Virus record (IMG/VR): IMGVR_UViG_2778261179_000014
Location: 1 to 30,147 of that record
Direction: 5' to 3' (one strand)
DNA: 30,147 bases
From: a virus
Lineage: Duplodnaviria > Heunggongvirae > Uroviricota > Caudoviricetes
Numbering within the stretch: position 1 is the stretch's first letter; each line of letters opens with the position of its first letter. The notes beneath the pieces were generated by a model. It did no database searches, was not told where the DNA came from, and was given only the letters and a program-made list of their open reading frames with translations. Below, in pieces: positions 1 through 11,509 of the stretch. A program made the position numbers and the translations under genes.

Positions 1-1119
1 TCAAATAACCAACTTAACCCATTCCTGACCTCGAGTATCGTTATAGCGATCGGTGGTTGCCTGGACTTTATGTCCTAGTAATGTTTTTGTATCGATACCC
101 TGTGCACGGTACAGCCGTTCTGATAGAGAGCGTTGTTCATGAAATGTTGGCGGAGTTTTTCCTGCTGGTGGAATTATCCCAGCCAGATCCCGTGCTTTGG
201 CAAAGTAGTCGCTCAGGTTGTCTTTACTCATCGGCTTTGGTTGTTTCTGGTGCCGACTATGGATTAGGTATGGACTTAATATTCTGTCTCGGCACCCATC
301 AATAACTTCTTTTAACGTTATCCCAATGGCATCACAGCGTAGTGTAAGCGGTAACGCCAGACGCATTCCGGTTTTTCCCTGGGTGATATGCAAGTGTTCG
401 TTCCACACATCTGAAAAACGCATGTGGCAAATGTCATCACGGCGCTGACCAGTAACAATCGCAAGAAGCATTGCGTTACGGATAAAGTGTTTTTCAGGCG
501 TTGCGTTGTAAATTTTTTGCCAGTCTTCCAGGGTGAGTCTGGCTCTGGTTACTTTAGGGATCGGTTTACGGGTAGCCTCCGGAGGATTCCATCCAGGAGG
601 AACTTCCCCTGCATGCTGTGCTTCTTTATAAATATCAACCCATAATCCACGATTTACTCTCGCTGTGCTGACCATGTCTTTATCCAGCCACTCATCCAGT
701 ATTAATGCAAAGTCTCTTACTTCCAGTTCTTTCAATGGGTGGTTTCCCAGACGGGAAACCAGGTATGCAGCCATTCGGGCTTTTTCTTTGTGAGTTGTAG
801 CTGCAATATCTCCATTTTTCAGTCGCGCGTCCTGTATTTTCAGATATCGATCAACCCATGCCTTTAATCTGATACCCCGACGTTTTGTTGCTGACGGACT
901 TTCATCAATTTTGCGCATGAAATATTCAGCTTCTGCTGCAGCTATTCGCTGATTGGCTGTGGAAGCGATTTTTTCTGCTTTGCCTTTGTCTGTTCCGAGA
1001 CCGTGAAATTTTCCAGTCACAGGGTTTTTATACTGGTAGTAAACCCTGCCAGTTCTGCGATCAAACTTTTCGTAAAGACCGGTTACGTCAGTGCTGTTTT
1101 TTCGTGGCCTCGGTGACAT
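1..1119 (-). CDS. int: Phage integrase (tyrosine recombinase, lambda-like)
   Basis: 372-aa ORF with complete stop at 1-3; C-terminal region shows the tyrosine recombinase pattern (R...H..R...Y: LLGHKVQATTDRY); position at prophage end next to an excisionase-like gene. Confidence 0.9.
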   Translation of the reverse strand: MSPRPRKNSTDVTGLYEKFDRRTGRVYYQYKNPVTGKFHGLGTDKGKAEKIASTANQRIAAAEAEYFMRKIDESPSATKRRGIRLKAWVDRYLKIQDARLKNGDIAATTHKEKARMAAYLVSRLGNHPLKELEVRDFALILDEWLDKDMVSTARVNRGLWVDIYKEAQHAGEVPPGWNPPEATRKPIPKVTRARLTLEDWQKIYNATPEKHFIRNAMLLAIVTGQRRDDICHMRFSDVWNEHLHITQGKTGMRLALPLTLRCDAIGITLKEVIDGCRDRILSPYLIHSRHQKQPKPMSKDNLSDYFAKARDLAGIIPPAGKTPPTFHEQRSLSERLYRAQGIDTKTLLGHKVQATTDRYNDTRGQEWVKLVI

Positions 1120-1357
1120 GAGTTAAAATCTCCTTCAGTGCATCATCATCGCCAGTATGAATTTCCGGCGCAATTCCCGTTTCACCAGGTCCAACAAATA
1201 CTGCCCGGCGATCTATCAGCCAACGCCCACGAATTTTTTGTGGTCTTGGAACGATGTATCCTAGTTTTCCGTATTTCACCAGGGTAGTGTTTGTTATTGG
1301 GAGACTGAACCGTTTTGGTTTCCACTCGTCGAGCGTTATCAGGTATTGTTCGCTCAT
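1088..1357 (-). CDS. xis: Excisionase-like small DNA-binding protein
   Basis: 89 aa from ATG at 1357 (GGAG about 9 nt upstream); overlaps the integrase start by 32 nt as is typical for xis-int; basic small protein. The track's GTG at 1366 is an alternative start. Confidence 0.6.
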   Translation of the reverse strand: MSEQYLITLDEWKPKRFSLPITNTTLVKYGKLGYIVPRPQKIRGRWLIDRRAVFVGPGETGIAPEIHTGDDDALKEILTHVTEATKKQH

Positions 1358-1418
1358 GGCTATCACTCCGGAACGCGCCAGTTGCAGAATACCAACGACA
1401 ACTGGCGACGGTTGAACA

Positions 1419-3860
1419 TTAAAAATCAGCCTGACTCGGGATCAGTTTTTGCCAGATAGCTGAAACGTATTTTGCCTGGTAACGAGCGTCATCAAGTGCA
1501 TTATGGCGCTCACCTTCGAATGGAATAGCCGTTCTGGCATCGAAGTCTATGGCTTTCCCCAGCTCAACGATTGTGCGTACATCGCGATCGTTGTAGTAAC
1601 GCCACGGGCAGGGGATCCCCTGCCGTTCGTATGAACGGCGCAAAATCGTGTTGTCGAAGTTGGCTCCATTTCCCCAGACCTGAACAAAAAATTCACCGGA
1701 GTTTTCGTCGATAAATTCCCGCAATTGTAACAGTGCATCATCTAACGGGATTTCATCGGTCATAATGGCAGATTGCGCTTCGCGTGATTGCTTAAGCCAC
1801 CATTTAATGGTGTCCCGATCAATGACTCCGCCAGCAGTTTCCAGATCGATAGTCTTACTAAATTCCGGTCCCATATCTCCGGTTTGCGGATCGAAAAATA
1901 TTGCACCTATTGAGATGATCGGGGCATCAGGATTTTTTCCCATGGTTTCAAGGTCGATCATTAGATGGTCACACGTCCTGCTGGTGGATGTGATTTCGCG
2001 ATGACCGTTCACCTTAATTGAGTGATCTGCCGTCTCGCCAGTTTTATTATCGCTGGCGTGATGCTGATTGCCGCCAGGGTTCTCCTTGTGTGGATGTTCA
2101 GCGCCTTCCATTTCCTCCGGATCATTTTCCTGAACTTCAACCTGATTCTCTTCATCGAATGTTTCCTGGTATGTTGCGTCGCCCATCACCGCGCCACAAT
2201 CAGGGCAGTTGCCGCCACCGCTTTGACCGCAGGCGGTGCAGACTTTTTCCGGTTCCTGTTGCGCTACTGGTTCGGATTGTTTCGTTTCTGGCTCGTTTTG
2301 TAACGCATTTGGGCTGTTTTGTTCCGCTTTTTGGTCGTTCCGTTCCGATTCATGCTGGTTCTGGTTCACAGAATCGCGAGTCTGGATCCCCTTGACCCAT
2401 TTCGGATCATTAGGGTCGCTAATCCCCTCAACAAATTCACCACGCGATACAGCAAGTAACTTATCGGCGTCAGGCTGGCTGATATTGGCTGCCTGCATAA
2501 TTTTGTTTACTTCGTCAGCGGTGACTTTTACTTGGTTAGCGGAACTCACCTGCGACTGAGCATCCAGCGACTGCGCGTTCTGGCCATGTTCAGTTGTATC
2601 CGGTTCCATTGTTTCAGTTGTTGCCTGTTCACCTGCCATTGCGTCAGATGGTTGTGGTTTTTCTTCTTCTGTTTCACGCTTAGTAACCACCTCGCGGTTA
2701 ATTTCTTCCAGGATATCTTTTTCCGGCGTATGCCGGGCAGCTGTGAGAATTTCCTTGCTGGGGTTCTCGTGATCAGTTTCCGTCAAATAGGCGTTGATAT
2801 ACCCCTGAAGGCGTCCCGGGTAGTGATAAAATTCAGGGTGTGCGCTTCGGATAAGTGCAAAAATAGCGGCGCGGGAATAGTCCAGAATACCCGGGGTTGC
2901 ACGAAGTGCTGCGGACCATTCTTTGAACGGACTTTCTTTGTTCAGGACTACTTCTTTTGCGCGACGATAAACGCTGCCCGGAATTTCATAAATATTAAAA
3001 TCCATCGGAAGTGTGGCTGCTGCAATCTCCACATCCAGTGTGTCGAGGGTGTGTACTAAATTCGGATTGCGATCGGTTTTGTTCCCACCGCCAGCATTAG
3101 CACCGGAAGCCGTGCGGGTGATGCGTGAAACACGATTTCCTTTCATCCACTCTTTTGTCAGCAGACCCCGATCAGTGTAGTCAGCGTCCAGGTATGCTTC
3201 GAAAAAAGCAGTTATTAGTCCCAAGTCTGAATTACTAGGATTAGGGAAAACTTTGTCAGTGTCACGAACCAGTTTGTGGAGGTCGCGAATCTCCAGCGAG
3301 TCGAGCAGACTGGTTTTATGCGAAATAGCCAGGGCAGTAACAGCCGGTAGTTCTTCAGCCCGTGCAATGTGTAATGCCTGGAGTTCGTCGCGTGAAACGT
3401 GCGTTACTGGTTTTTCGCTGCCGTGTTGAGCAAGCCAACGAATGGGCAGTTCCTGACCGGAGACAGGCAGAAGCATGCTCTCCTCAATCTCAGTCATGTC
3501 TTCGCCGTTGATGTTGGTATTGTCAGTGCTAGCTGGTTTGCCCTGAACAGAGGGGGAAGGGCCGATAAATGTCATTGTGATGCCATCTTTCCCGCCTTTT
3601 TCATAGCGGTTGCAGAATTCAGTATCAAACACGCCTTCTGGCGGAAGGTCGTCAACAACGGGCAAATTGACGCGGACGGGTTTTTTAAAGTCGTCTTCAT
3701 CATAATCGTTGTCATCCATTGCGGTAATGCAGCGGGAGATTGCAACAGATAATTTTTTTGCTGTAGTCCAGTAAAAACCACCTTTAATTCCCAGGCGTTT
3801 TCTTACTTTGTCATTTTTTGCTTCGCAATATAGTGCAAATTCTTCTTTATCAGTGCTCAT
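1419..3860 (-). CDS. Large exonuclease with C-terminal DnaQ-like DEDDh 3'-5' exonuclease domain
   Basis: 813 aa. C-terminal about 200 aa carry Exo I (MIDLETMG), Exo II ([12 protein letters not shown]) and Exo III (HNALDDARY) motifs. Long acidic, low-complexity N-terminal region with a CxxC..CxxC cluster ([16 protein letters not shown]). Proteins of this architecture in E. coli prophages are often annotated exodeoxyribonuclease VIII-like; that is from memory and unverified. Confidence 0.8.
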
Positions 3861-3953
3861 TATTGATAAACCTCATCACAGATTTAAGGGTGAACAAATC
3901 TCTGCCATTGCTGACATATAAGAATGAAACTGGATATTTATTACGGAACTGTT

Positions 3954-4145
3954 TTAAAGACCTGCCGGGATTTCGATATTATCCTGGTGAATAACTTTAT
4001 CGACCGGGTAACAGTTACCGGGAATTTTCTGTTCGGTTGCTGCTGCCATACATTCCTGCATTGTTCTGTGAACACTGACTGCAATATCAACTGGCTCTCC
4101 GGAAACAAGAAAAACCGTCAGAATAAGTGCAAATACTGGATTCAT
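3954..4145 (-). CDS. Hypothetical small protein with hydrophobic N-terminus
   Basis: 63 aa from ATG at 4145 (AAGGA 8 nt upstream); the start overlaps the stop of the upstream gene as ATGA (translational coupling); N-terminus MNPVFALILTVFLVSG is hydrophobic. Confidence 0.4.
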   Translation of the reverse strand: MNPVFALILTVFLVSGEPVDIAVSVHRTMQECMAAATEQKIPGNCYPVDKVIHQDNIEIPAGL

Positions 4146-4330
4146 TGTGCACATCCTTTTGGCATCAGACGTAAACGGGCCAGCATTGAAACAATGCATA
4201 CTTTATTTAATAACTCCCGTTCGTGTTTTCTTTTGTTAATGGCCTCTTCAGTGAATACAGGATTACTGATAGTGACACCAATTTCAAAACAACCTTCAGA
4301 CGTATTAACGTTTGGTAATAACGTTTTCAT
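4142..4330 (-). CDS. Hypothetical small protein
   Basis: 62 aa from internal ATG at 4330 with GAGGG 7 nt upstream; coupled to the downstream gene by ATGA overlap. The longer track ORF (to 4435) lacks an RBS. Confidence 0.4.
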   Translation of the reverse strand: MKTLLPNVNTSEGCFEIGVTISNPVFTEEAINKRKHERELLNKVCIVSMLARLRLMPKGCAQ

Positions 4331-4868
4331 TATCGCGCCCTCAACAATGAGTTTTGTGATGCGGTGCCTGGTGCCTCCAGGTGACGTTAACCAGTTAACA
4401 ATTAACGCCGGATACAGAGAATCCACCCATAACACTGTTTTTGGTTTTAACTGTTCCGCGTGCGCTTAGCCGCATTCACCGCATCACAAAATTCACTTTA
4501 AAAATGGCGGCAGAGCAGTCACGGAGTAAAACTGATACCGCCAAACGTCACCAGAAAATTGATAACAGAGGGCGTTGCAGCGGGGTTGTCACTTAAGCGT
4601 ATGGTCAACCTGACAACCCGGTGTCCTCAACGGGGAAGGAATAACCCCGCCATACTTACCGCCGCGCCATTTCGCGGAGTGCCACAACCGGAAGCGCACG
4701 GTCGACGAAAATTTAACGACAGGCTATCTATAAACCAGCTACCTCGCCGTACGCTTTCGCGTTGTGTGCCTGCTTTTAACCACGTCAGGCGAGGTGGTTC
4801 CTGTTATTCCCCAACAACAAGAAATTTGTATAATCCGGATATCCCCAACAACGAGAAGAGTACTCAAC

Positions 4869-5324
4869 GTGATAGCAGAACTGTCAGCGGCTATGGCTGC
4901 GATAAAGGAGACAGCTGGTCTCGCTAAGGTTATTAATGACGCAAAAACGGATGCAGAAGTTAAAGCCGCAACTATTGAACTTCAGAACAAACTAATCACG
5001 CTTCAGGCGGAATGCTTCTCTCTTTGCGATGCGATCCGCTTTCGTGATGAAGAGATAATGCATCTCAAAGCAAAAATTGCAGAGACAGAAGATTTTCAGC
5101 GACAGGCGGAAGGTTACAAGCTTAACAAGCTTGATTCTGGAACCCTTGTATATTCCAAGAAGCAATTTATAGGCGATACTGAGATAACTGTGCATCTTTG
5201 CCCACAATGTTTTGGAAAAAAGGTAATATCTGTACTTCAGCCAATGGAAATAATGCGCTTTGATGCTCATTTTCGTACTTTTTGCCCCGCTTGCAATAAT
5301 AAGTTCTGGATGAACTCAAGATAA
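4869..5324 (+). CDS. Hypothetical coiled-coil protein with C-terminal CPxC...CPxC zinc ribbon
   Basis: Plus-strand ORF inside an otherwise minus-strand early-left region; perfect TATAAT at 4829-4834 upstream; candidate starts GTG 4869 or ATG 4893; N-terminal heptad-like region (ELQNKLITLQAE..., LKAKIAETEDFQRQAEG) and C-terminal HLCPQCFG...FCPACNNKF. Confidence 0.6.
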   Translation: MIAELSAAMAAIKETAGLAKVINDAKTDAEVKAATIELQNKLITLQAECFSLCDAIRFRDEEIMHLKAKIAETEDFQRQAEGYKLNKLDSGTLVYSKKQFIGDTEITVHLCPQCFGKKVISVLQPMEIMRFDAHFRTFCPACNNKFWMNSR

Positions 5325-5459
5325 TTAACCGTTTAAATAAGTTGGGACTATCCAGATTTTTAAAGAACGTACCGGATGCTCACCCGTGTCCGGCGCACGC
5401 ACTCCACCTCACCCGTGGAGAACTCCTTAATTACCAACCTTAGCTTCGTTGGTTAGCTA

Positions 5460-5678
5460 TTAGCGCGGGTATGTAATCATTCTGGCAATGCTTAATGCTG
5501 CTGCTTTTTCCAGCCTGGTGATATCCTGCTCCAGAGCGGACAGATTTTCAGCCTGCTTAGCCCTGGCTTCATTGGCCCATTTCAGATCCTGCGCTGCATT
5601 AATTTTCTGGCGCATCCACTCATAAAGTTCATCATCGGTATAGTCTGGCGCGATGATGACGGGTTCTCGTTTCTGCAT
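5460..5678 (-). CDS. Hypothetical early-left protein
   Basis: 72 aa, ATG at 5678 with GAGGAA upstream; last gene of a three-gene leftward cluster downstream of the OL region. Confidence 0.5.
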   Translation of the reverse strand: MQKREPVIIAPDYTDDELYEWMRQKINAAQDLKWANEARAKQAENLSALEQDITRLEKAAALSIARMITYPR

Positions 5679-5707
5679 ACTGATTCCTCGCGGTGCTGCT
5701 TCGCTTA

Positions 5708-5836
5708 TCAGCCGTTAGATTTTGCCGAGCTGGAAAGCGCCTGTTTAAACTCACTGAAGCTGAGAGCTTCTTCGCCTTCGGCAAGGCCTTCGAAGTATTC
5801 TTCGTAAGCCTTTTCCATGATTGTGTCGAAATCCAT
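5708..5836 (-). CDS. Hypothetical small acidic protein (42 aa)
   Basis: Hand-translated MDFDTIMEKAYEEYFEGLAEGEEALSFSEFKQALSSSAKSNG; AGGTGA RBS 5 nt upstream; start 1 nt after the stop of the upstream gene. Below the ORF-track size cutoff. Confidence 0.35.
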   Translation of the reverse strand: MDFDTIMEKAYEEYFEGLAEGEEALSFSEFKQALSSSAKSNG

Positions 5837-5837
5837 A

Positions 5838-6074
5838 TCACTCACCTGAGTTTCTTTCCAGCCAGCGACGGGCACCATTTTCGGTTTTAAACGTTTTGCT
5901 TTTGGTATACGTCATTGCGGTGAACGTGCCGTCCTGGTTTGGAAACACGCCGTACACCAGAGATTCGTTGTTGCCAAGATCGATAGTATCCATGTTGACC
6001 TCATTTCCCCTTAACGCCGGGGTAGCGGAACAAAAACCTGCTGCATAGTTATTAAAGTTGAACCCTGCCGTCAT
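5838..6074 (-). CDS. Hypothetical protein, first gene downstream of the OL/pL region
   Basis: 78 aa with GAGG 6 nt upstream of ATG 6074; alternative internal start at 5993. Not Arg-rich, so no resemblance to lambda N. Confidence 0.5.
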   Translation of the reverse strand: MTAGFNFNNYAAGFCSATPALRGNEVNMDTIDLGNNESLVYGVFPNQDGTFTAMTYTKSKTFKTENGARRWLERNSGE

Positions 6075-6159
6075 GTTCTTACGCCTCGGGCTGGCTACTT
6101 AACCCCTGACCACTGCCTGGTAACTCGAAGTATTGCCCGGCGTTCTGTGGGGCGGGGTG

Positions 6160-6216
6160 GGTTGGTATGTAATAAATCTAAAAGTATTTAGTTTTATAGT
6201 CAAGGGGAATCTAAAT
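6160..6216 (-). promoter_or_regulatory. Putative OL operator / leftward early promoter region
   Basis: AATCTAAAAGTATTTAGTTT and GAATCTAAATTAATTT carry the same AATCTAA/TTAGATT half-sites as the palindrome between the repressor and cro genes; sits between the repressor terminator and the leftward small genes. Confidence 0.4.
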
Positions 6217-6220
6217 TAAT

Positions 6221-6250
6221 TTAAAAAAAAGGTCGGCATAACCGACCTTA
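6221..6250 (-). terminator. Rho-independent terminator downstream of the repressor gene
   Basis: On the minus strand GGTCGG-TTATG-CCGACC hairpin followed by TTTTTTTT, immediately after the repressor stop at 6271. Confidence 0.6.
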
Positions 6251-6270
6251 AGTTCAAGGACATGGCAGGG

Positions 6271-6918
6271 TTATAGGTTGAACTGCACACCTTTTGCTAC
6301 GGCAACAATTTTACACTCTGGCGTAAGCAAGGATGATTGATAGCGCGGATTGAGAGGGCTTAAATACACAAGTTTTCCATCAATAACTAATTTTTTTATA
6401 GTCATAGACGGTTCATTTGTAAGTGGATCTGGAACTATTACAGCGACGATACTGCCATTTTTATAACTCTCTCCTGGTCTTAGGATCACAGTGGCACCAA
6501 CCGGGATACTTGGCGACCCTGAGGGGTTATGCATAGTGTCATCAGGCATTGAAACGGCAAAATCACCTTCCACTACATCAAAGAATGTGGTGATCCTATC
6601 GACATTTCCCATTGTTTTCTCTCCTTCTAAGATTAGGAAAGAAATCGCGTCACCCCACGAAAAGTAGGGGATCTTGGTGCCTGGATTGCTCTGCACAAAA
6701 GATAGTTCAGGAGACGATACTCCATACAGGAGATAGGACTCAGTAGTTCCTAATGCCTGGGCTAACTTACTTAGAGCTTTGCTGCCGGGTTCGTTTAGAT
6801 CTTTCTCCCAGTACCCTATAGTAACCCCAGTCACGCCTGAAAGCTTACCCAGTTCTACTTGGGTGAGTCCCTTATCTTTTCTGAGTTTCTTAAGCCTGAT
6901 GCCAAGGCTTTCCATCAT
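6271..6918 (-). CDS. CI-like phage repressor (HTH plus S24 LexA-like peptidase domain)
   Basis: 215 aa; N-terminal HTH (GLTQVELGKLSGVTGVTIGYWE); C-terminal domain with Ser (AVSMPDD) and Lys (MTIKKL) typical of autocleaving repressors; divergent from a cro-like gene. Confidence 0.85.
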   Translation of the reverse strand: MMESLGIRLKKLRKDKGLTQVELGKLSGVTGVTIGYWEKDLNEPGSKALSKLAQALGTTESYLLYGVSSPELSFVQSNPGTKIPYFSWGDAISFLILEGEKTMGNVDRITTFFDVVEGDFAVSMPDDTMHNPSGSPSIPVGATVILRPGESYKNGSIVAVIVPDPLTNEPSMTIKKLVIDGKLVYLSPLNPRYQSSLLTPECKIVAVAKGVQFNL

Positions 6919-6939
6919 TTTCTCCCGCGAGTTGAATAT

Positions 6940-7005
6940 AAATTATTTTAGATTGCATTGACCTAAAAAAAATTATCCTGTAATCTAAAAATACTTAGAT
7001 TTTAG
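6940..7005. promoter_or_regulatory. OR-like operator/promoter region between repressor and cro-like genes
   Basis: Perfect palindrome AATCTAA-AAATAC-TTAGATT at 6982-7001 and a further TTAGATT half-site at 6948-6954; rightward promoter TTGACC (6958-6963), 17 nt spacer, TAATCT (6981-6986) overlapping the palindrome. Confidence 0.6.
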
Positions 7006-7014
7006 GAGAGTGAA

Positions 7015-7242
7015 ATGCGAGTTGATGAACTTGTTCAGTTTTTTGGCTCTGTTCAGAGGGTCGCTGATTTTTATGGGATAACCCGCGAAGCTATTTACAT
7101 GTGGCGTAAGCGCCCCGGTGAAATAGTTCCTAAAGGGAGAGCTGCGGAAGCTGCTGCATACTCCAAGGGAAAATTATCTTTGAACCCAGAGCTTTACAAA
7201 AAGAAGGATACCACCCGGGACAAAAGGAAGAGTGATTCATGA
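7015..7242 (+). CDS. Cro-like / YdaS-like small regulator
   Basis: 75 aa, GGAGAG RBS, divergent from the repressor; HTH-like VADFYGITREAIYMWRKR. Confidence 0.6.
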   Translation: MRVDELVQFFGSVQRVADFYGITREAIYMWRKRPGEIVPKGRAAEAAAYSKGKLSLNPELYKKKDTTRDKRKSDS

Positions 7243-7664
7243 AAATCAAACATGAACATATCCGCATGGCGATGAATGCCTGGGCGCATCCGGACGGCGA
7301 AAAAGTACCGGCTGCGAAAATTACCAAAGCGTATTTCGAGCTGGGAATGACGTTCCCGGAACTGTATGACGACAGCCATCCGGAAGCCCTGGCTCGCAAT
7401 ACTCAGAAAATTTTCCGCTGGGTGGAGAAAGACACCCCTGATGCGGTTAAAAAAATTCAGGCGTTGTTACCAGCTATCGAAAAAGCAATGCCACCTCTGC
7501 TGGTGGCCCGAATGCGCAGCCATAGCTCAGCCTATTTTCGGGAACTGGTGGAGACGCGGGAACGACTGGTGAGAGACGCTGATGATTTTGTCGCAGTGGC
7601 GATCGCTGGTTTCAACCAGATGAATCGAGGTGGCCCTGCAGGAAATATTGTGGCTGTGCATTGA
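7239..7664 (+). CDS. YdaT-like (CII-position) regulatory protein
   Basis: 141 aa, start overlaps the cro-like stop; sits in the CII position; N-terminus MKIKHEHI recalled as YdaT-family (unverified). Confidence 0.5.
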   Translation: MKIKHEHIRMAMNAWAHPDGEKVPAAKITKAYFELGMTFPELYDDSHPEALARNTQKIFRWVEKDTPDAVKKIQALLPAIEKAMPPLLVARMRSHSSAYFRELVETRERLVRDADDFVAVAIAGFNQMNRGGPAGNIVAVH

Positions 7665-7735
7665 CTCGCAATATTCATACCGGATCACTTCCGGCAATTT
7701 GTGAGTAAAAAGATTCGGTATCAAAAGAGGTGAGT

Positions 7736-8806
7736 ATGGCTAACGCCTGGCTCAGATTATGGCATGACATGCCAAATGACCCTAAGTGGCGAACAATTGC
7801 CAGGGTGTCAGGGCAGCCAATTGCAACAGTGATGGCAGTGTATATCCACCTATTGGTGAGCGCGTCACGAAATGTCACGCGAGGTCACATTGATGTCACG
7901 ACAGAAGATTTGGCAAGTGCGCTCGACGTGACAGAAGAGGTAATTGATTCAATTTTACAGACGATGCAGGGGCGGGTACTTGATGGTGATTTAATCACTG
8001 GATGGGAAAAACGCCAGGTGCTTAAAGAGGACAACGGCAATATTTCGCAAACCGCAAAATCTCCTGCAGAGCGCAAGAGGGCGCAGCGAGAGAGGGAAAG
8101 AAAGCGGGAACAAAATGGCGATTGTCACGGCGCGTCACGAAATGTCACGCACATGTCACGACAAGTCACGACAGATACAGATACAGAGAAAGATACAGAT
8201 CAAGAAGATCAAAACACTATGGTCCATGGCGTAAAAAACGCCACGAACCAGGCAGGGGATGTTCAGACCGTCAATCCTGGTCAGCCAGCAGGCACGACAC
8301 CGGAAGCCGATTCAGCGTATGCGCTGAAAGCCGATTCGGGCGCTGTGCAGCAGGTGATGACCGCAAGGCCGGAGCAATCACACCAACTGCAGCAGCCTGA
8401 AGCCGATTCCGCCATTCAGCGGGAAGCCGATCGGGTAGTCCCGGAAAACACCGGGCAGTCTGTGGGACGAGTGGATTATCCGGATGTGTTCGAACAGGTC
8501 TGGCGGGAGTACCCGTTGCGTGCCGGAGCAAACCCGAAGAAATCCGCTTTCAGTGCCTGGAAGGCCAGATTACGCGAGGGGGTGCCACCAGAGGCCATGC
8601 TGGATGGCGTGAGGCGTTACGCAAGATACCTGGCGGCTACCGGGAAAACGGGAACGGAATTTGTTCAGCGAGCGACGACGTTTTTTGGACCGGACCGGAA
8701 TTTTGAGAACCCCTGGTTGCTCCCGGTAAGCGGCACGAACAACCAGCGTTGTGTGAATCATATTTCTGAACCGGATAACGAAATTCCGCCGGGCTTCAGG
8801 GGGTAA
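7736..8806 (+). CDS. Replication initiation / replisome organizer protein (O-like) with internal origin iterons
   Basis: About 356 aa from ATG 7736 (GAGGTG upstream); two iteron clusters lie inside the coding sequence; low-complexity central linker; position after the cro/cII-like genes. Confidence 0.7.
   Translation: MANAWLRLWHDMPNDPKWRTIARVSGQPIATVMAVYIHLLVSASRNVTRGHIDVTTEDLASALDVTEEVIDSILQTMQGRVLDGDLITGWEKRQVLKEDNGNISQTAKSPAERKRAQRERERKREQNGDCHGASRNVTHMSRQVTTDTDTEKDTDQEDQNTMVHGVKNATNQAGDVQTVNPGQPAGTTPEADSAYALKADSGAVQQVMTARPEQSHQLQQPEADSAIQREADRVVPENTGQSVGRVDYPDVFEQVWREYPLRAGANPKKSAFSAWKARLREGVPPEAMLDGVRRYARYLAATGKTGTEFVQRATTFFGPDRNFENPWLLPVSGTNNQRCVNHISEPDNEIPPGFRG
7861..7900. repeat. Iteron cluster 1 (GTCACG-type repeats at about 10-bp phasing)
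   Basis: GTCAC(G/A) at 7864, 7874, 7884 and 7895; the 20-mer CGCGTCACGAAATGTCACGC is repeated exactly at 8131-8150. Confidence 0.6.
8124..8200. repeat. Iteron cluster 2 plus GATACA repeats (putative replication origin)
   Basis: GTCACG at 8124, 8134, 8144, 8155 and 8165 (9-11 bp phasing), followed by (A)GATACAG x3-4 at 8171-8200. Confidence 0.6.
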
Positions 8807-8846
8807 GTGTTAATTTCTGGTCATGAGGTAATTTTCAGGAGGGCTT

Positions 8847-9269
8847 GTGGCAAAAGTTTTTACACAAGAAGAGCGGGAAAAAATTAAAGGGCAGGTTCTT
8901 GAACTCGTACGCCAGAGTGGGCGCGAGACGTTACGACAACTGGAAGCTAAAACTGGGGCAACAAGATATCTGATGAGCGTTCTGGCCAGAGAGCTGGTTG
9001 CCAGTGGCGATGTATACAACTCTGGTTACGGGTTATTCCCGTCTGAACAGGCTCGTAAAGACTGGCAAAATGCCCGCAAAAAATTATCGAGGGCAAAGCT
9101 GAAGAAACCGGTTGTGGTTGATCCGGACCTTATCTGGTCATTACCTGACGGAGAAATACGTCGCTACGACAGTCGCCTAAACATAATCTGTCGCGAGTGC
9201 CGGAAGAGCGAAGTTATGCAGCGCATATTGTCGTTTTATCAGGGGGATGTTCGGTATTTATTGAAGTGA
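8847..9269 (+). CDS. Hypothetical protein with HTH-like N-terminus
   Basis: 140 aa from GTG 8847 with AGGAGGG RBS; sits where a helicase loader would be expected but is too small and shows no Walker motifs. Confidence 0.5.
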   Translation: MAKVFTQEEREKIKGQVLELVRQSGRETLRQLEAKTGATRYLMSVLARELVASGDVYNSGYGLFPSEQARKDWQNARKKLSRAKLKKPVVVDPDLIWSLPDGEIRRYDSRLNIICRECRKSEVMQRILSFYQGDVRYLLK

Positions 9270-9513
9270 CGAGATTAAAGTGCATTAGTTCAGATGCAAA
9301 TTGACATTTTGTGGCACAGGGTAGAGCTAGCGTGGTTGTCCGCTTTGTGCCAAAAGCAGAACTTGCTTACATTGTGCTATGTTAATTTGTTGGGAGCAGG
9401 TCACAAAGTCCAGCCAGGACGAAAATAAATAATTGCCATACATTTAGTGTTGATTATTTCGGGATTGTTCATCTATTCTGATTGTATCAGCGAGCAGGCC
9501 GGAGTCACTCTTC

Positions 9514-9738
9514 GTGGATCATCCCATACTTCAGAAAACAATCGTTCTCTTTATTCTTGCCCTATGGGTAATTGATCCATTCAGGACAAAGAGCAGAAAG
9601 CATACTGAATCCACCATTGAAGAAGCCGATGCCAGAGAACGTCATAAATGGCGATATCTCAGATGGGGAGTGCGAACAATACAAATTGCAGCGACAGTAT
9701 ATATGTTTGCTATGCTGATTCAGTTTTTACTGAAGTAG
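9514..9738 (+). CDS. Possible small membrane protein
   Basis: 74 aa from GTG; two hydrophobic segments (TIVLFILALWVIDPF, IQIAATVYMFAMLIQFLL); no convincing RBS. Confidence 0.25.
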   Translation: MDHPILQKTIVLFILALWVIDPFRTKSRKHTESTIEEADARERHKWRYLRWGVRTIQIAATVYMFAMLIQFLLK

Positions 9739-10516
9739 ACGGCTCAGGCAGGTACGACCGGACGGAATTGGCAGCCAATTCAGCGGAGGCCGGACGGGGT
9801 TAAACGTCCCCTCTGTGCCAGTGACCTGCTCCTCGTTGATTCACACGGAAGGCTGTTAGAAATGTGCAATTTTTGCTCACAGCAGACTGTAAGAGTTGAT
9901 TGTGTGTTGCACTGTGAGATCAAATCAAAACCAATATATTCAGGCATCTTCCCACAGCGCCCCCCATTCAACAGGCAATTGCTCCTTATCAAATCCCTCA
10001 AACCAGTAAACACTACTTTTTGCCCAACAATAGGCACTTCTCCCCAACCCTAATGAAACAATGCGCGACTCCAGTCCGGCTTGAGACGACCATGCCGTTT
10101 AAGGCGCACACCATTACAAGCAGTTGCTCATATTGAGGGAAAGTTAATAAAGAAACTTAACGGCATTTCCTCTTTTGCGCACGTTTCAATTGCCTTGATA
10201 TCCAGTCTTGGTTACGTTTGCGAATTTTTTGTTTCATTGGCTACTGTTCTGATTCGACTCACTTATTAATCAATGATCTTACTGTATTCCAACGCCATGC
10301 TTTGTACAGGAATGTCCGCTTTTCGCTCAAAGCGGACTAGAAGGTTAGCTTGCGTCGGACTTGGCGTATTTAAAGAAGTGCTGGTGGTGACTGGTTGTTG
10401 TGTTCCATTTCTACAGAACAAAATCACAGAAACTATACCCAATAGTTGTATCTCATCAATGATGAGACAGCCTCATATTTATCAGGACTGGTGTACGTCC
10501 AATACAGGAGGTTGTC

Positions 10517-10606
10517 GTGCTGGTTCTCAAATGTGCGCTGGCTATTGCAGCTGTAATGGCAATTTATTGTCTTGCTGTTGTTCTTATGGATCGCCTTTCT
10601 GATTGA
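10517..10606 (+). CDS. Candidate 29-aa hydrophobic peptide (possible type I toxin-like small protein)
   Basis: AGGAGG (10506-10511), 5 nt spacer, GTG 10517; hand-translated VLVLKCALAIAAVMAIYCLAVVLMDRLSD, stop TGA 10604-10606; lies just upstream of the hok leader. Below the track size cutoff. Confidence 0.3.
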   Translation: MLVLKCALAIAAVMAIYCLAVVLMDRLSD

Positions 10607-10760
10607 TTTTATATTGGCGAGGTAACGGGAGTTAAGTAGAATGGCTGCGGGTGCTTGAGGCTATCTGTCTCAGGCATGAACACCAAAGGCAGATAGAGAA
10701 AAGCCCCAGTTAACATTACGCGTCCTGCAAGACGCTTAACATTAATCTGAGGCTCAATCT

Positions 10761-10973
10761 ATGAACGGCAAATCTAGGTTAGCCTCTTACGTGCCGAAAG
10801 GCAAGGAGAAGCAGGCTATGAAGCAGCAAAAGGCGATGTTAGTCGCCCTGATCGTCATCTGTTTAACCGTCATTGTGACGGCACTGGTAACGAGGAAAGA
10901 CCTCTGCGAGGTACGAATCCGAACCGGCCAGACGGAGGTCGCTGTCTTCACAGCTTACGAACCTGAGGAGTAA
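10761..10973 (+). CDS. Mok-like upstream reading frame of the hok locus
   Basis: 70-aa ORF that includes the hok frame with a 19-codon N-terminal extension from ATG 10761. Confidence 0.4.
   Translation: MNGKSRLASYVPKGKEKQAMKQQKAMLVALIVICLTVIVTALVTRKDLCEVRIRTGQTEVAVFTAYEPEE
10818..10973 (+). CDS. hokD: Hok/Gef-family type I toxin (HokD/RelF-like, 51 aa)
   Basis: MKQQKAMLVALIVICLTVIVTALVTRKDLCEVRIRTGQTEVAVFTAYEPEE; AAGGAG RBS 9 nt upstream; single TM segment plus the conserved C and Y. Close match to my recollection of E. coli HokD. Confidence 0.85.
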   Translation: MKQQKAMLVALIVICLTVIVTALVTRKDLCEVRIRTGQTEVAVFTAYEPEE

Positions 10974-11042
10974 GAGACCTGGCGGGGGAGAAATCCCTCG
11001 CCACCTCTGATGTGTCAGGCATCCTCAACGCACCCGCACTTA

Positions 11043-11062
11043 ACCCGCTTCGGCGTTTTTTC
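11043..11062 (+). terminator. Putative 3' hairpin / terminator of the hok mRNA
   Basis: CGC-TTCG-GCG short hairpin followed by TTTTTT; preceded by GCATCCTCAACGCACC, which could pair with the 5' leader GGTGCTTGAGGC (fold-back element). Confidence 0.4.
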
Positions 11063-11116
11063 CGTTGATTAACTCTAGTTATTAGAGAACCGAACTTTTA
11101 TTGATGGGGCAGGGAG

Positions 11117-11509
11117 ATGAAGAAACTTGTTTTAGTCGCAGGTGTAATGATTGCAACAGTAATGTTGGGAGGGTGTGCAGCAAAGGTCGATCCAGCGTTG
11201 AAAGCAGAAGCAATGAAGCCACTAACATGTAATGATGAAAAGCAATGTGACTTTTATTGGAAACGAGCGCAATTCTGGTTGGCTAATAATTCCTCATGGA
11301 AAATTCAAACGGCGACAGACACGCTAATTTCCACTTATAATCCCTCTCCAAATAGTCCATTCCTCGCTTATCAAGTGAGTAAAATGCCAAATGAAGATGG
11401 ATCCTCAAGAATTTTCATCAAGCCTTTTTGCGATAATATGTTTGGCTGTCAACCAAACCCCTATCAGGCAGTTGTTTCCTTTAAAAACTTCGTTAAAACA
11501 GGGCAGTAG
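11117..11509 (+). CDS. Lipoprotein of unknown function (moron)
   Basis: 130 aa; GGGAG RBS; signal peptide ending in lipobox LGGC (MKKLVLVAGVMIATVMLGGC); several Cys in the mature part; followed by a strong terminator. Confidence 0.75.
   Translation: MKKLVLVAGVMIATVMLGGCAAKVDPALKAEAMKPLTCNDEKQCDFYWKRAQFWLANNSSWKIQTATDTLISTYNPSPNSPFLAYQVSKMPNEDGSSRIFIKPFCDNMFGCQPNPYQAVVSFKNFVKTGQ

Follow-up and report, generated by a model that had tools for sequence, protein, structure and literature searches.

Paired palindromes that may be sites of cargo exchange in a gene-poor interval of a lambdoid Escherichia coli prophage

Introduction

The stretch of DNA analysed here (positions 1 to 30,147 of IMG/VR virus record IMGVR_UViG_2778261179_000014, hereafter the window, 30,147 nt long) is a lambdoid (Rac/Qin-like) Escherichia coli prophage, and our subject is its gene-poor interval at 9270-10620, which lies between the DUF977 gene that follows the replication initiator and the hok/sok module. 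We find that this interval probably consists of three parts, namely the end of the prophage backbone (9270-9337), a 1000-bp cargo cassette (9338-10337) and the leader of hok (10338-10620), and that the cargo is replaced by crossovers within two 24-bp palindromes, L and R, at the ends of the cassette. L and R form the limits of the cassette and contain the crossovers, and the same sites serve in several unrelated replicons. These palindromic joints are the interesting part of the interval, and they are partly known; the missing helicase loader, on which the original prediction for this DNA had dwelt, is ordinary.

For the defence hotspots of phages and their satellites, the mechanism of exchange, above all of exchange between unrelated elements, has been stated to be unknown, and palindromes and hairpins go unmentioned in the accounts of them (PMC9122126, 2022; PMC13586616, Nucleic Acids Research 2026). 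L and R are a concrete candidate for such exchange of cargo, since they are two 24-bp sites that mark the exact border between backbone and cargo, and this border marking holds both in the lambdoid slot and in the slot between the tail-fibre and tail-sheath genes of P2. The two palindromes may thus be where cargo is swapped. If the sites are sufficient for exchange, they would explain the rapid turnover of defence genes, scanning for L...R pairs would help to find cargo, unannotated small genes included, and a natural tool for cassette exchange would be possible.

Similarity to other genomes breaks at two palindromes

The outer parts of the interval and the two sites that separate them from the cargo are as follows.

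9270-9337, no strand: backbone spacer after DUF977, conserved in E. coli genomes up to L.
9338-9361, no strand: L site, GTCCGCTTT GTGCCA AAAGCAGAA, with 9-6-9 geometry; a hybrid, in which the left arm is of the backbone type and the right arm of the cassette type.
10314-10337, no strand: R site, GTCCGCTTT TCGCTC AAAGCGGAC, a palindrome with a perfect 9-bp stem.
10338-10620, no strand: conserved backbone upstream of hok, not cargo; 87-98% identical in 1,746 E. coli genomes and never annotated.

In about 2,400 E. coli genomes the DNA of 9270-9360 is conserved behind DUF977, up to the L palindrome, where the similarity stops. On the other side, 10308-10620 is conserved upstream of hokD in 1,746 genomes, with the similarity beginning at the R site, and the interval between the two sites is rare, being present in 25 E. 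coli genomes. Both break points in similarity coincide with the two 24-bp palindromes. The local palindrome TGGCACA...TGTGCCA that had been pointed out before in this DNA is real, with TGGCACA at 9312 and TGTGCCA at 9346, and the latter is the centre of the 24-bp palindrome L; the 24-bp pattern occurs twice in the window, against an expectation of zero. L and R have their arms in common (GTCCGCTTT and AAAGCGGAC) and differ in their centres, GTGCCA in L versus TCGCTC in R. The centres are conserved like the stems: 42 of 64 L sites have GTGCCA, and 43 of 47 R sites have TCGCTC. Among 5,426 complete E. coli genomes, 2,634 carry R-type sites, with a median of one per genome, and the lambdoid slot is present in roughly 40-50% of complete genomes. 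TGGCACAGGGTAGAGC, at 9312-9327 in the spacer, is found to the left of L in P2-like phages as well, and this flank is common to the P2 backbone; the DNA at 10338-10620 is also present in the phages Tritos, Evi and mEp460.

The cassette and other cargoes between the same sites

In local alignments the same 1000-bp cassette is found elsewhere with 97.4-99.4% identity across its full length. One copy lies beside an island integrase near mutS (99.4%, locus L005), another at the end of a prophage near a restriction-modification system and a reverse transcriptase (99.2%, locus L006), a third on a CTX-M-15 plasmid (98.6%, locus L007) and a fourth in a P2-like prophage of strain 027_SK3, between the genes for tail-fibre assembly and tail sheath (97.4%, locus L008). 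The similarity of these copies starts at or just before L and ends at R, and no target-site duplications were found at five insertion contexts. Integrase genes stand beside three of the copies, differ in kind and may be there by coincidence. The cassette has moved while bearing a dead gene, which is described below with the rest of its content.

The use of these sites is not confined to one cargo. An exact-pattern scan of IMG/VR returned 108 loci, most of them with an ordered L (GTGCCA)...R (TCGCTC) pair 0.4-4 kb apart, and when the loci from IMG/VR and E. coli were clustered, a further 22 classes of cargo emerged between ordered pairs. These include Shedu SduA (ORF1 of P2-EC31), PDC-S39 (DUF4209), PDC-S15 (FRG domain), GIY-YIG, NUDIX+HAD, and a SIR2/ThsA-like protein with an adenosine-deaminase-like neighbour; SduA, PDC-S39, PDC-S15 and the ThsA-like protein are matched by PADLOC, and several of the cargoes are known or candidate genes of anti-phage defence. 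Two main backbones use the L/R pair, the lambdoid one in its slot from Ren to hok and that of P2 in its tail-fibre/tail-sheath slot, and three cargo classes, the window's included, occur in both. Where cassettes stand in tandem they are joined as R, 18-21 nt, L. In relatives that share the initiator and DUF977 gene of the window, the position of the cassette holds unrelated cargo (NUDIX+HAD, a protein of 251 amino acids, an AAA ATPase, a methyltransferase).

No empty slot was found in IMG/VR with exact-flank patterns for the lambdoid and P2 backbones, nor in the 5,426 E. coli genomes with a synthetic empty-site query, and this fits replacement rather than insertion and excision. The smallest content of a lambdoid slot that we saw is that of strain A20 (locus L250, 1238-1515), in which L is intact, R is truncated and lacks its left arm, and about 230 nt separate the two. 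We considered this locus as an empty slot and rejected it, as it is a deletion remnant of the 1032-bp cassette.

Informative exchanges fall between the arms of the palindromes

The arms of each palindrome have separate histories. The left arm of L belongs to the backbone (GTCCGCTTT in lambdoid phages, GTCCGCTCT in P2), and its right arm travels with the cargo, being AAAGCAGAA for the window cassette in seven contexts, AAAACGGAC for the cassette of the 251-amino-acid protein and ACAGCGGAC for that of 1032 bp. In R the roles are reversed, with the left arm following the cargo and the right arm the backbone (AAAGCGGAC in lambdoid phages, AAAGCAGAC in P2). Outer arms are therefore of the backbone's type and inner arms of the cargo's, which places every informative exchange inside the palindromes, between their arms. 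The 9-6-9 geometry and the tracking of the arms together place the exchange there; the intervals are wide, and no cleavage points are readable from the sequence.

Calculated for DNA, the R site forms a strong hairpin (-9.2 kcal/mol, z = -4.8) and the L site of the window a poor one (-3.1 kcal/mol, z = -0.13), so that hairpin stability is not what is maintained at L. We also considered selection on the hairpin as a source of covariation in the stem and rejected it, since the only variable pairing position (4 with 21) varies independently, which fits hybrid arms. Exchange between the arms explains both this lack of covariation and the poor hairpin of L in the window.

We conclude from the junctions that cargo enters and leaves the slot by replacement, through one crossover in L and one in R against a replicon that has the same two sites. 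In a dedicated reaction, L would recombine with L and R with R, and the unlike centres would block a deletion by recombination of L with R.

A wider family of palindromes

The same palindrome family, with the centres GTGCCA, GGGTCA, GGGCCA and others, occurs in Alpha-, Beta- and Gammaproteobacteria (at least 120 loci; examples of the repeat are loci L129-L248, such as L151 at 104-7870, L157 and L225). In Xanthobacteraceae, GTCYGCTTT-N6-AAAGCRGAC is a high-copy intergenic repeat with up to 16 copies in 8 kb, and the palindrome repeat is also found in Nitrosomonadaceae, Rhizobium, Serratia, Pantoea and others. In Alphaproteobacteria the palindromes often form doublets 45 or 91 nt apart and lie between ordinary chromosomal genes.

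Site-specific exchange and its alternatives

We infer that the combination of a 9-6-9 geometry with two kinds of centre has the look of a recombinase core site, and the recent spread of one useless, decayed cassette into at least five backbones argues for an efficient process. On these grounds a dedicated site-specific reaction at L and R is plausible, and we hold to it tentatively, with slightly less than even confidence. In its widest form, the proposal would be that L and R are heterospecific core sites of a host- or phage-encoded recombinase that carries out exchange of L by L and of R by R, that this shuttles defence and other cargo among P2-like and lambdoid phages, integrase-flanked islands or satellites, and plasmids, and that the repeat family of the Proteobacteria is the wider substrate of that enzyme family; taken as a whole we consider this unlikely, and offer it as speculation.

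Several observations weigh against our reading of the interval. In the 120 genome loci among the matches listed, neither a recombinase nor a repetitive-extragenic-palindrome-associated tyrosine transposase (RAYT) recurs next to the sites, and the commonest neighbour is an ABC-transporter binding protein. In each event the crossover can be confined only to an interval of about 9-17 of the 24 positions, with which ordinary recombination within 24 bp is compatible, and identical boundaries would also arise by template switching or by recombination at short homologies. The absence of covariation at the pair 4/21 belongs here too, as does the lack of a PADLOC defence-model match for the small protein that the cassette encodes. 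Finally, the alphaproteobacterial copies look like a repeat of the repetitive extragenic palindromic (REP) type and not like a cassette boundary, and the abundance of the palindromes between ordinary genes means that the sites may have another primary role, to which recombination is incidental.

A first alternative is general recombination (RecA, phage annealing of the Red/RecET type, or template switching) acting at the 24-bp palindromes as the sole sequence common to unrelated backbones, with the palindromes persisting for other reasons or by descent. The boundaries must fall in the only shared sequence under any mechanism, the crossover intervals are wide, no recombinase was found, the prophage itself encodes a RecE-like exonuclease, and the 2026 paper cited above names homologous and illegitimate recombination as candidate mechanisms. 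Each swap would nevertheless need two crossovers, each within 24 imperfect base pairs, and a single decayed cassette lies in at least five backbones (its identity from end to end exceeds 98.6% in four and is 97.4% in the fifth); moreover the centres of L and R are distinct, ordered and as conserved as the arms, and all informative junctions switch between arms. We regard general recombination as possible, with a somewhat lower likelihood than a dedicated reaction. That the palindromes are mainly elements of transcript or DNA structure (REP-like hairpins that insulate or stabilise messenger RNA or bind a host protein), with swapping as a by-product, seems to us improbable. In its favour, the R site is a strong hairpin, and in Xanthobacteraceae and other Proteobacteria this palindrome, with its flanking 'at...at' unchanged, recurs between genes in many copies. 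Against it, E. coli has a median of one copy per genome, the loci examined are slots of mobile elements, L in the window folds poorly, and the loop sequences are conserved. Neither L nor R has a T-run or was called by the terminator scan, and a search of Rfam at a permissive threshold (8500-11500 and five repeat-rich loci) returned only sok and an unrelated small RNA, with no family for the palindromes.

Two other explanations concern the cassette rather than its ends. A non-autonomous transposon, either a miniature inverted-repeat transposable element or a palindrome-associated element of the IS200/IS605 type mobilised in trans, would account for the terminal palindromes, for the several genomic contexts and, as in IS200/IS605, for the lack of target duplications. 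The ends, however, are common to the neighbouring backbone and are not carried whole, the outer half of each palindrome belonging to the backbone; the cassette is always in a pre-existing L/R slot, and no empty target was found; the 120 genome loci hold no recurrent transposase near the sites; and the cargo, of 0.4-4 kb, is of unrelated content, all of which makes a transposon very unlikely. The interval could also be read as decayed replication genes (a loader or helicase) or as an island within the replication module that is regulatory or encodes a non-coding RNA, given its position right after the replication genes, its low GC content and its lack of long open reading frames (ORFs). To this we give next to no credence: the only pseudogene belongs to an unrelated family of 99 amino acids, the same DNA lies in P2-like phages, islands and a plasmid far from replication modules, relatives have unrelated cargo here, and sok is the only RNA family.

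Content of the cassette

The cassette holds the following features.

9392-9404, no strand: inner repeat GGGAGCAGGTCAC, with an inverted copy at 9821-9832; the pair brackets the gene for the 74-amino-acid protein.
9514-9738, plus strand: gene for a 74-amino-acid protein (phrog_25496, E = 2e-23), annotated as a coding sequence in E. coli strain H1.
9806-9832, no strand: scar, in which the L-like half-site GTCCCCTCTGTGCCA (9806-9820) precedes the inverted inner repeat, GTGACCTGCTCC.
9864-9887, no strand: degenerate R-type site GTGCAATTT TTGCTC ACAGCAGAC, the internal junction of two fused cassettes.
9940-10237, minus strand: pseudogene of the 99-amino-acid family phrog_12809, from the alignment with the intact gene of strain CU42ET-1.

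The 1000-bp cassette is two older cassettes fused into one, the first with the intact gene for the 74-amino-acid protein and the second with the dead gene of the 99-amino-acid family, because a degenerate R-type site and an L-like half-site lie between the two genes. At the junction equivalent to 9864-9887, strain CU42ET-1 has an intact R-type site, and the second half of the cassette comes after it. The arrangement in that strain (locus L009, 1947-4465) is an L...R cassette that contains a DUF3800 gene, followed directly by the right half of the window cassette, in which the gene of the 99-amino-acid family is intact; this arrangement shows the way in which fused cassettes arise. The GGGAGCAGGTCAC motif is also found within other cassettes.

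The 74-amino-acid protein has two predicted hydrophobic membrane helices and an invariant ERHxWRYLRWG loop. Its homologues form 11 clusters, ten of them of 71-74 amino acids with 58-100% identity over the full length and one of 72 amino acids in which the alignment covers 70%. A homologue in Citrobacter amalonaticus (locus L125, 4001-4225) lies directly upstream of the gtrA-gtrB-gtrC cluster for O-antigen modification, with no L/R palindromes nearby. Compared with the intact gene of CU42ET-1, the pseudogene has two 1-nt deletions and two premature stops; its family comprises 19 clusters, 13 of them of 99 amino acids, across Enterobacterales. Neither the 74- nor the 99-amino-acid protein matches a PADLOC defence model.

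The original prediction had described 9270-10620 as AT-rich and without a convincing long ORF, and as possibly consisting of decayed genes, of cargo encoding small RNAs or peptides, or of unusual regulatory DNA. The lack of long ORFs agrees with the annotation of the NCBI Prokaryotic Genome Annotation Pipeline (PGAP), which leaves the DNA from DUF977 to hokD without features in strains M3, M1 and 357900 (97-99.7% identical to the window across 8700-10800), and the AT-richness is mild but real (GC content 0.437 versus 0.500 for the whole window, in the lowest 0.5% of all 1351-nt windows). The interval is gene-poor rather than gene-free, with a conserved 74-amino-acid gene, a 99-amino-acid pseudogene and a conserved ORF of 29 amino acids. 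What stands of the earlier interpretation is the exchangeable cargo with a decayed gene, the frameshifted pseudogene on the minus strand, and a genuine small-protein gene at 9514-9738. A simple pseudogene is only part of the answer, as it accounts for about 300 of the 1351 bases. Small RNAs found no support, since the sole Rfam match near this stretch is sok, which lies downstream of 9270-10620, and the implied tie to the replication module did not hold, as nothing in the interval resembles a loader or helicase and the cargo is an unrelated one in the relatives that share the initiator and DUF977.

The hok leader and the DNA downstream

Two features lie in or directly after the conserved backbone to the right of R.

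10517-10606, plus strand: candidate gene for a hydrophobic peptide of 29 amino acids, with a GTG start and, 5 nt upstream, AGGAGG as a strong ribosome-binding site.
10614-10973, plus strand: hok/sok/mok module, with a promoter-like site (10614-10642), the sok region (10649-10823), mok (10761-10973) and hokD (10818-10973).

The 29-amino-acid ORF is situated just upstream of the hok promoter. Among 52 related loci with the region, its start, stop and length are kept in all 50 loci of standard length, which include phages of the phi80 and mEp460 types, and the changes are conservative. The variable sites number 7, 5 and 9 at codon positions 1, 2 and 3, a bias weak enough that we regard the ORF only as a candidate gene. 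It is unannotated in three phage records, and the coding sequence of phage HannyBb that overlaps it is on the opposite strand. The longest ORF here, a cysteine-rich one of 109 amino acids at 10273-10602, was rejected as a gene: it has no family match, it overlaps the R site and, in another frame, the 29-amino-acid ORF, and a 14-nt deletion breaks it in a homologous locus.

The assignment of the hok/sok module rests on the match to sok in Rfam (RF01794; 110 bits at 10649-10823 versus a gathering score of 59) and on the annotation of hokD in relatives, and the promoter-like site comes from a promoter scan. It had been remarked that the relBE genes which accompany hokD in E. coli K-12 are absent here, and this is so for the hok of the window. 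In the Qin prophage of K-12 (locus L016, 4120-5203) relE ends 71 nt before hokD, and relBE has therefore replaced the hok leader, sok and the 29-amino-acid ORF included, in K-12; relBE next to hokD is a peculiarity of that strain. The same prophage has an L-like site within ydfV (4982) and a degenerate R-like site between flxA and ydfW (5973).

After 9270-10620 the window continues with hok/sok, a lipoprotein gene, DUF968, RusA, Q, the lysis genes and the structural genes. The lipoprotein-like gene (11117-11509, 130 amino acids, phrog_16082) stands after hok in place of rem and other genes of relatives, and its position looks like another variable position for cargo.

The replication module

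The early genes of the prophage run in the order integrase, RecE-like exonuclease, LexA-type repressor (6271-6918, minus strand), cro, YdaT-like gene, initiator and DUF977. The last two are described by these features.

7730-8806, plus strand: replication initiator of 358 amino acids (phrog_3729, 'replication initiation protein', E = 8e-256).
8732-8803, plus strand: tail of the initiator (its final 24 residues, GTNNQRCVNHISEPDNEIPPGFRG), nearly identical to the C-terminal end of DnaT from the host (NCBIfam, PDB).
8847-9269, plus strand: DUF977/Ren-like protein of 140 amino acids (Pfam PF06163, E = 2e-28; phrog_142, 'Ren-like exclusion protein', E = 5e-45).

That no loader follows the initiator, and that the protein encoded after it is not DnaC- or P-like, had both been predicted, and both predictions are borne out. 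We found no match to the DnaC/IstB, lambda P or DnaB families in Pfam, PHROG or NCBIfam among the ORFs of 7239-9269 and the candidates of the left arm, with part of the ORFs in 1-6000 left unscanned, and the PGAP annotation of near-identical prophages lists no loader or helicase. The 140-amino-acid protein is DUF977/Ren-like according to Pfam (99.4 bits for PF06163 versus a cut-off of 22.1, over residues 1-135 of 140) and PHROG. In the related prophages that we fetched, the initiator followed by DUF977 without a loader in between is the rule, and one of them has a DUF1627 gene between the two. The DNA of the initiator-DUF977 module is widespread in E. coli genomes, and the isolated phage HannyBb has the same arrangement, with no loader annotated in its non-structural half. 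The replication module is thus an ordinary one, for which the loader-free state is normal.

The C-terminal two-thirds of the initiator (residues 122-358) match phrog_1701, 'DnaD-like helicase loader' (E = 6e-63), and also phrog_9327, 'primosomal protein', and PGAP names the initiator of relatives 'phage replisome organizer' or 'DNA-binding protein'. Residues 335-358 correspond to profile positions 156-179 of 179 in the NCBIfam model NF002770 for DnaT, and this tail (...VNHISEPDNEIPPGFRG), which reads SEPDN.IPPGFRG, aligns with the extreme C-termini of the DnaT structures PDB 6aep, 2ru8 and 9zbt_D. DnaT is an adaptor in the PriA-PriB restart pathway and is thought to recruit DnaB/DnaC (PMC13377028). 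The DnaD-like domain and the DnaT-like tail make it likely that the initiator borrows the host loader; most likely, judging from these similarities, it recruits host DnaB-DnaC via the primosome proteins of the host, and the tail may be mimicry by a phage initiator of the primosome adaptor of its host. The match to DnaT counts against this reading insofar as it is 24 residues long and scores under the curated cut-off of the family. Within the initiator gene, short tandem repeats of the GATACAGA type lie at 8170-8199, in an acidic TD-rich linker, and could be origin iterons as in lambda O.

The order and position of the module, an initiator followed by a Ren/DUF977 gene, are those of lambda O-P-ren and of ydaU-ydaV-ydaW in Rac, as is its location downstream of cro and a cII-like gene, and the 140-amino-acid protein, which is not a loader, occupies the position of lambda ren. 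Unlike in lambda and Rac, the initiator and the Ren-like gene of the window are not separated by a gene of the P or DnaC-like (YdaV) type; in its stead, the initiator bears a DnaD-like domain and a tail like that of DnaT.

Comparison with known exchange systems

The 2004 paper by Nilsson, Karlsson and Haggard-Ljungquist (Mol Biol Evol 21:1) that goes with the GenBank record of P2-EC31 invokes site-specific recombination in its title. In the literature that cites that paper or deals with P2-EC31 we found no description of the repeats, and in open-access papers we found no mention of the palindrome sequences in a relevant context. The ends themselves have been annotated before, as left and right inverted repeats, in the GenBank record of P2-EC31 (AJ512677). 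Window positions 9338-9403 are 88% identical to positions 92-157 of that record, a stretch that starts in the annotated left inverted repeat (3-115), and the R site of the window agrees with the first part of the right repeat. P2-EC31 represents the Z/fun region of P2, where the Shedu-like ORF1 is carried as cargo between the same L-type and R-type palindromes, and the window cassette belongs to the class of inverted-repeat-flanked cargo first annotated there. The slot of the window differs in its place, since it lies in a lambdoid prophage and has a Ren-like gene on one side and hok on the other, and what AJ512677 annotates are inverted repeats of about 100 nt and not the 9-6-9 core.

The slot also belongs among the defence hotspots of phages and satellites, in which a fixed position between conserved phage genes holds fast-changing cargo, much of it for defence (PMC9122126, PMC13586616). 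The P2 tail-fibre/tail-sheath locus is one of those slots and uses L/R; the cargo of the window differs in having no match to a known defence family.

Engineered cassette exchange uses heterospecific lox or FRT sites, and unlike centres there likewise prevent deletion between the two ends, as we propose for L and R. Integron cassettes are similar to the present ones in being promoter-poor units of 0.4-4 kb with short imperfect palindromes, which form tandem arrays with a fixed junction geometry. The attC site of integrons has R''/L''/L'/R' boxes, a GTTRRRY core and extrahelical bases, and it works with an IntI-attI platform. Here there are two sites per unit instead of one attC, the 9-bp arms are perfect and have no extrahelical bases, no GTTRRRY core is found in L or R on direct reading, and no intI is annotated in the relatives of the window. 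The pdif modules of Acinetobacter plasmids are, like these cassettes, discrete modules in different replicons, with sites made of a short arm, a 6-nt centre and a second arm; pdif sites are 11-6-11 and have two unlike arms, for XerC and XerD, whereas the arms of L and R are identical, 9 bp long and unlike dif in sequence.

REP sequences and REPINs (paired REP elements) with their RAYT share with L and R a short palindrome with an asymmetric centre, and the alphaproteobacterial relatives are high-copy and intergenic as well. The copies in E. coli have a median of one per genome, no RAYT gene lies near the sites in the 120 genome loci among the matches listed, and the palindrome of the window is unlike the classical REP consensus of E. 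coli. The hairpin-like ends and the lack of duplications would fit IS200/IS605 or REP/RAYT elements, but the junctions are inside the palindrome and not at an offset from it, and no Y1 transposase was seen near the sites in those 120 loci. The feature works like engineered cassette exchange, integron cassettes or pdif modules, yet it lacks what defines any of them.

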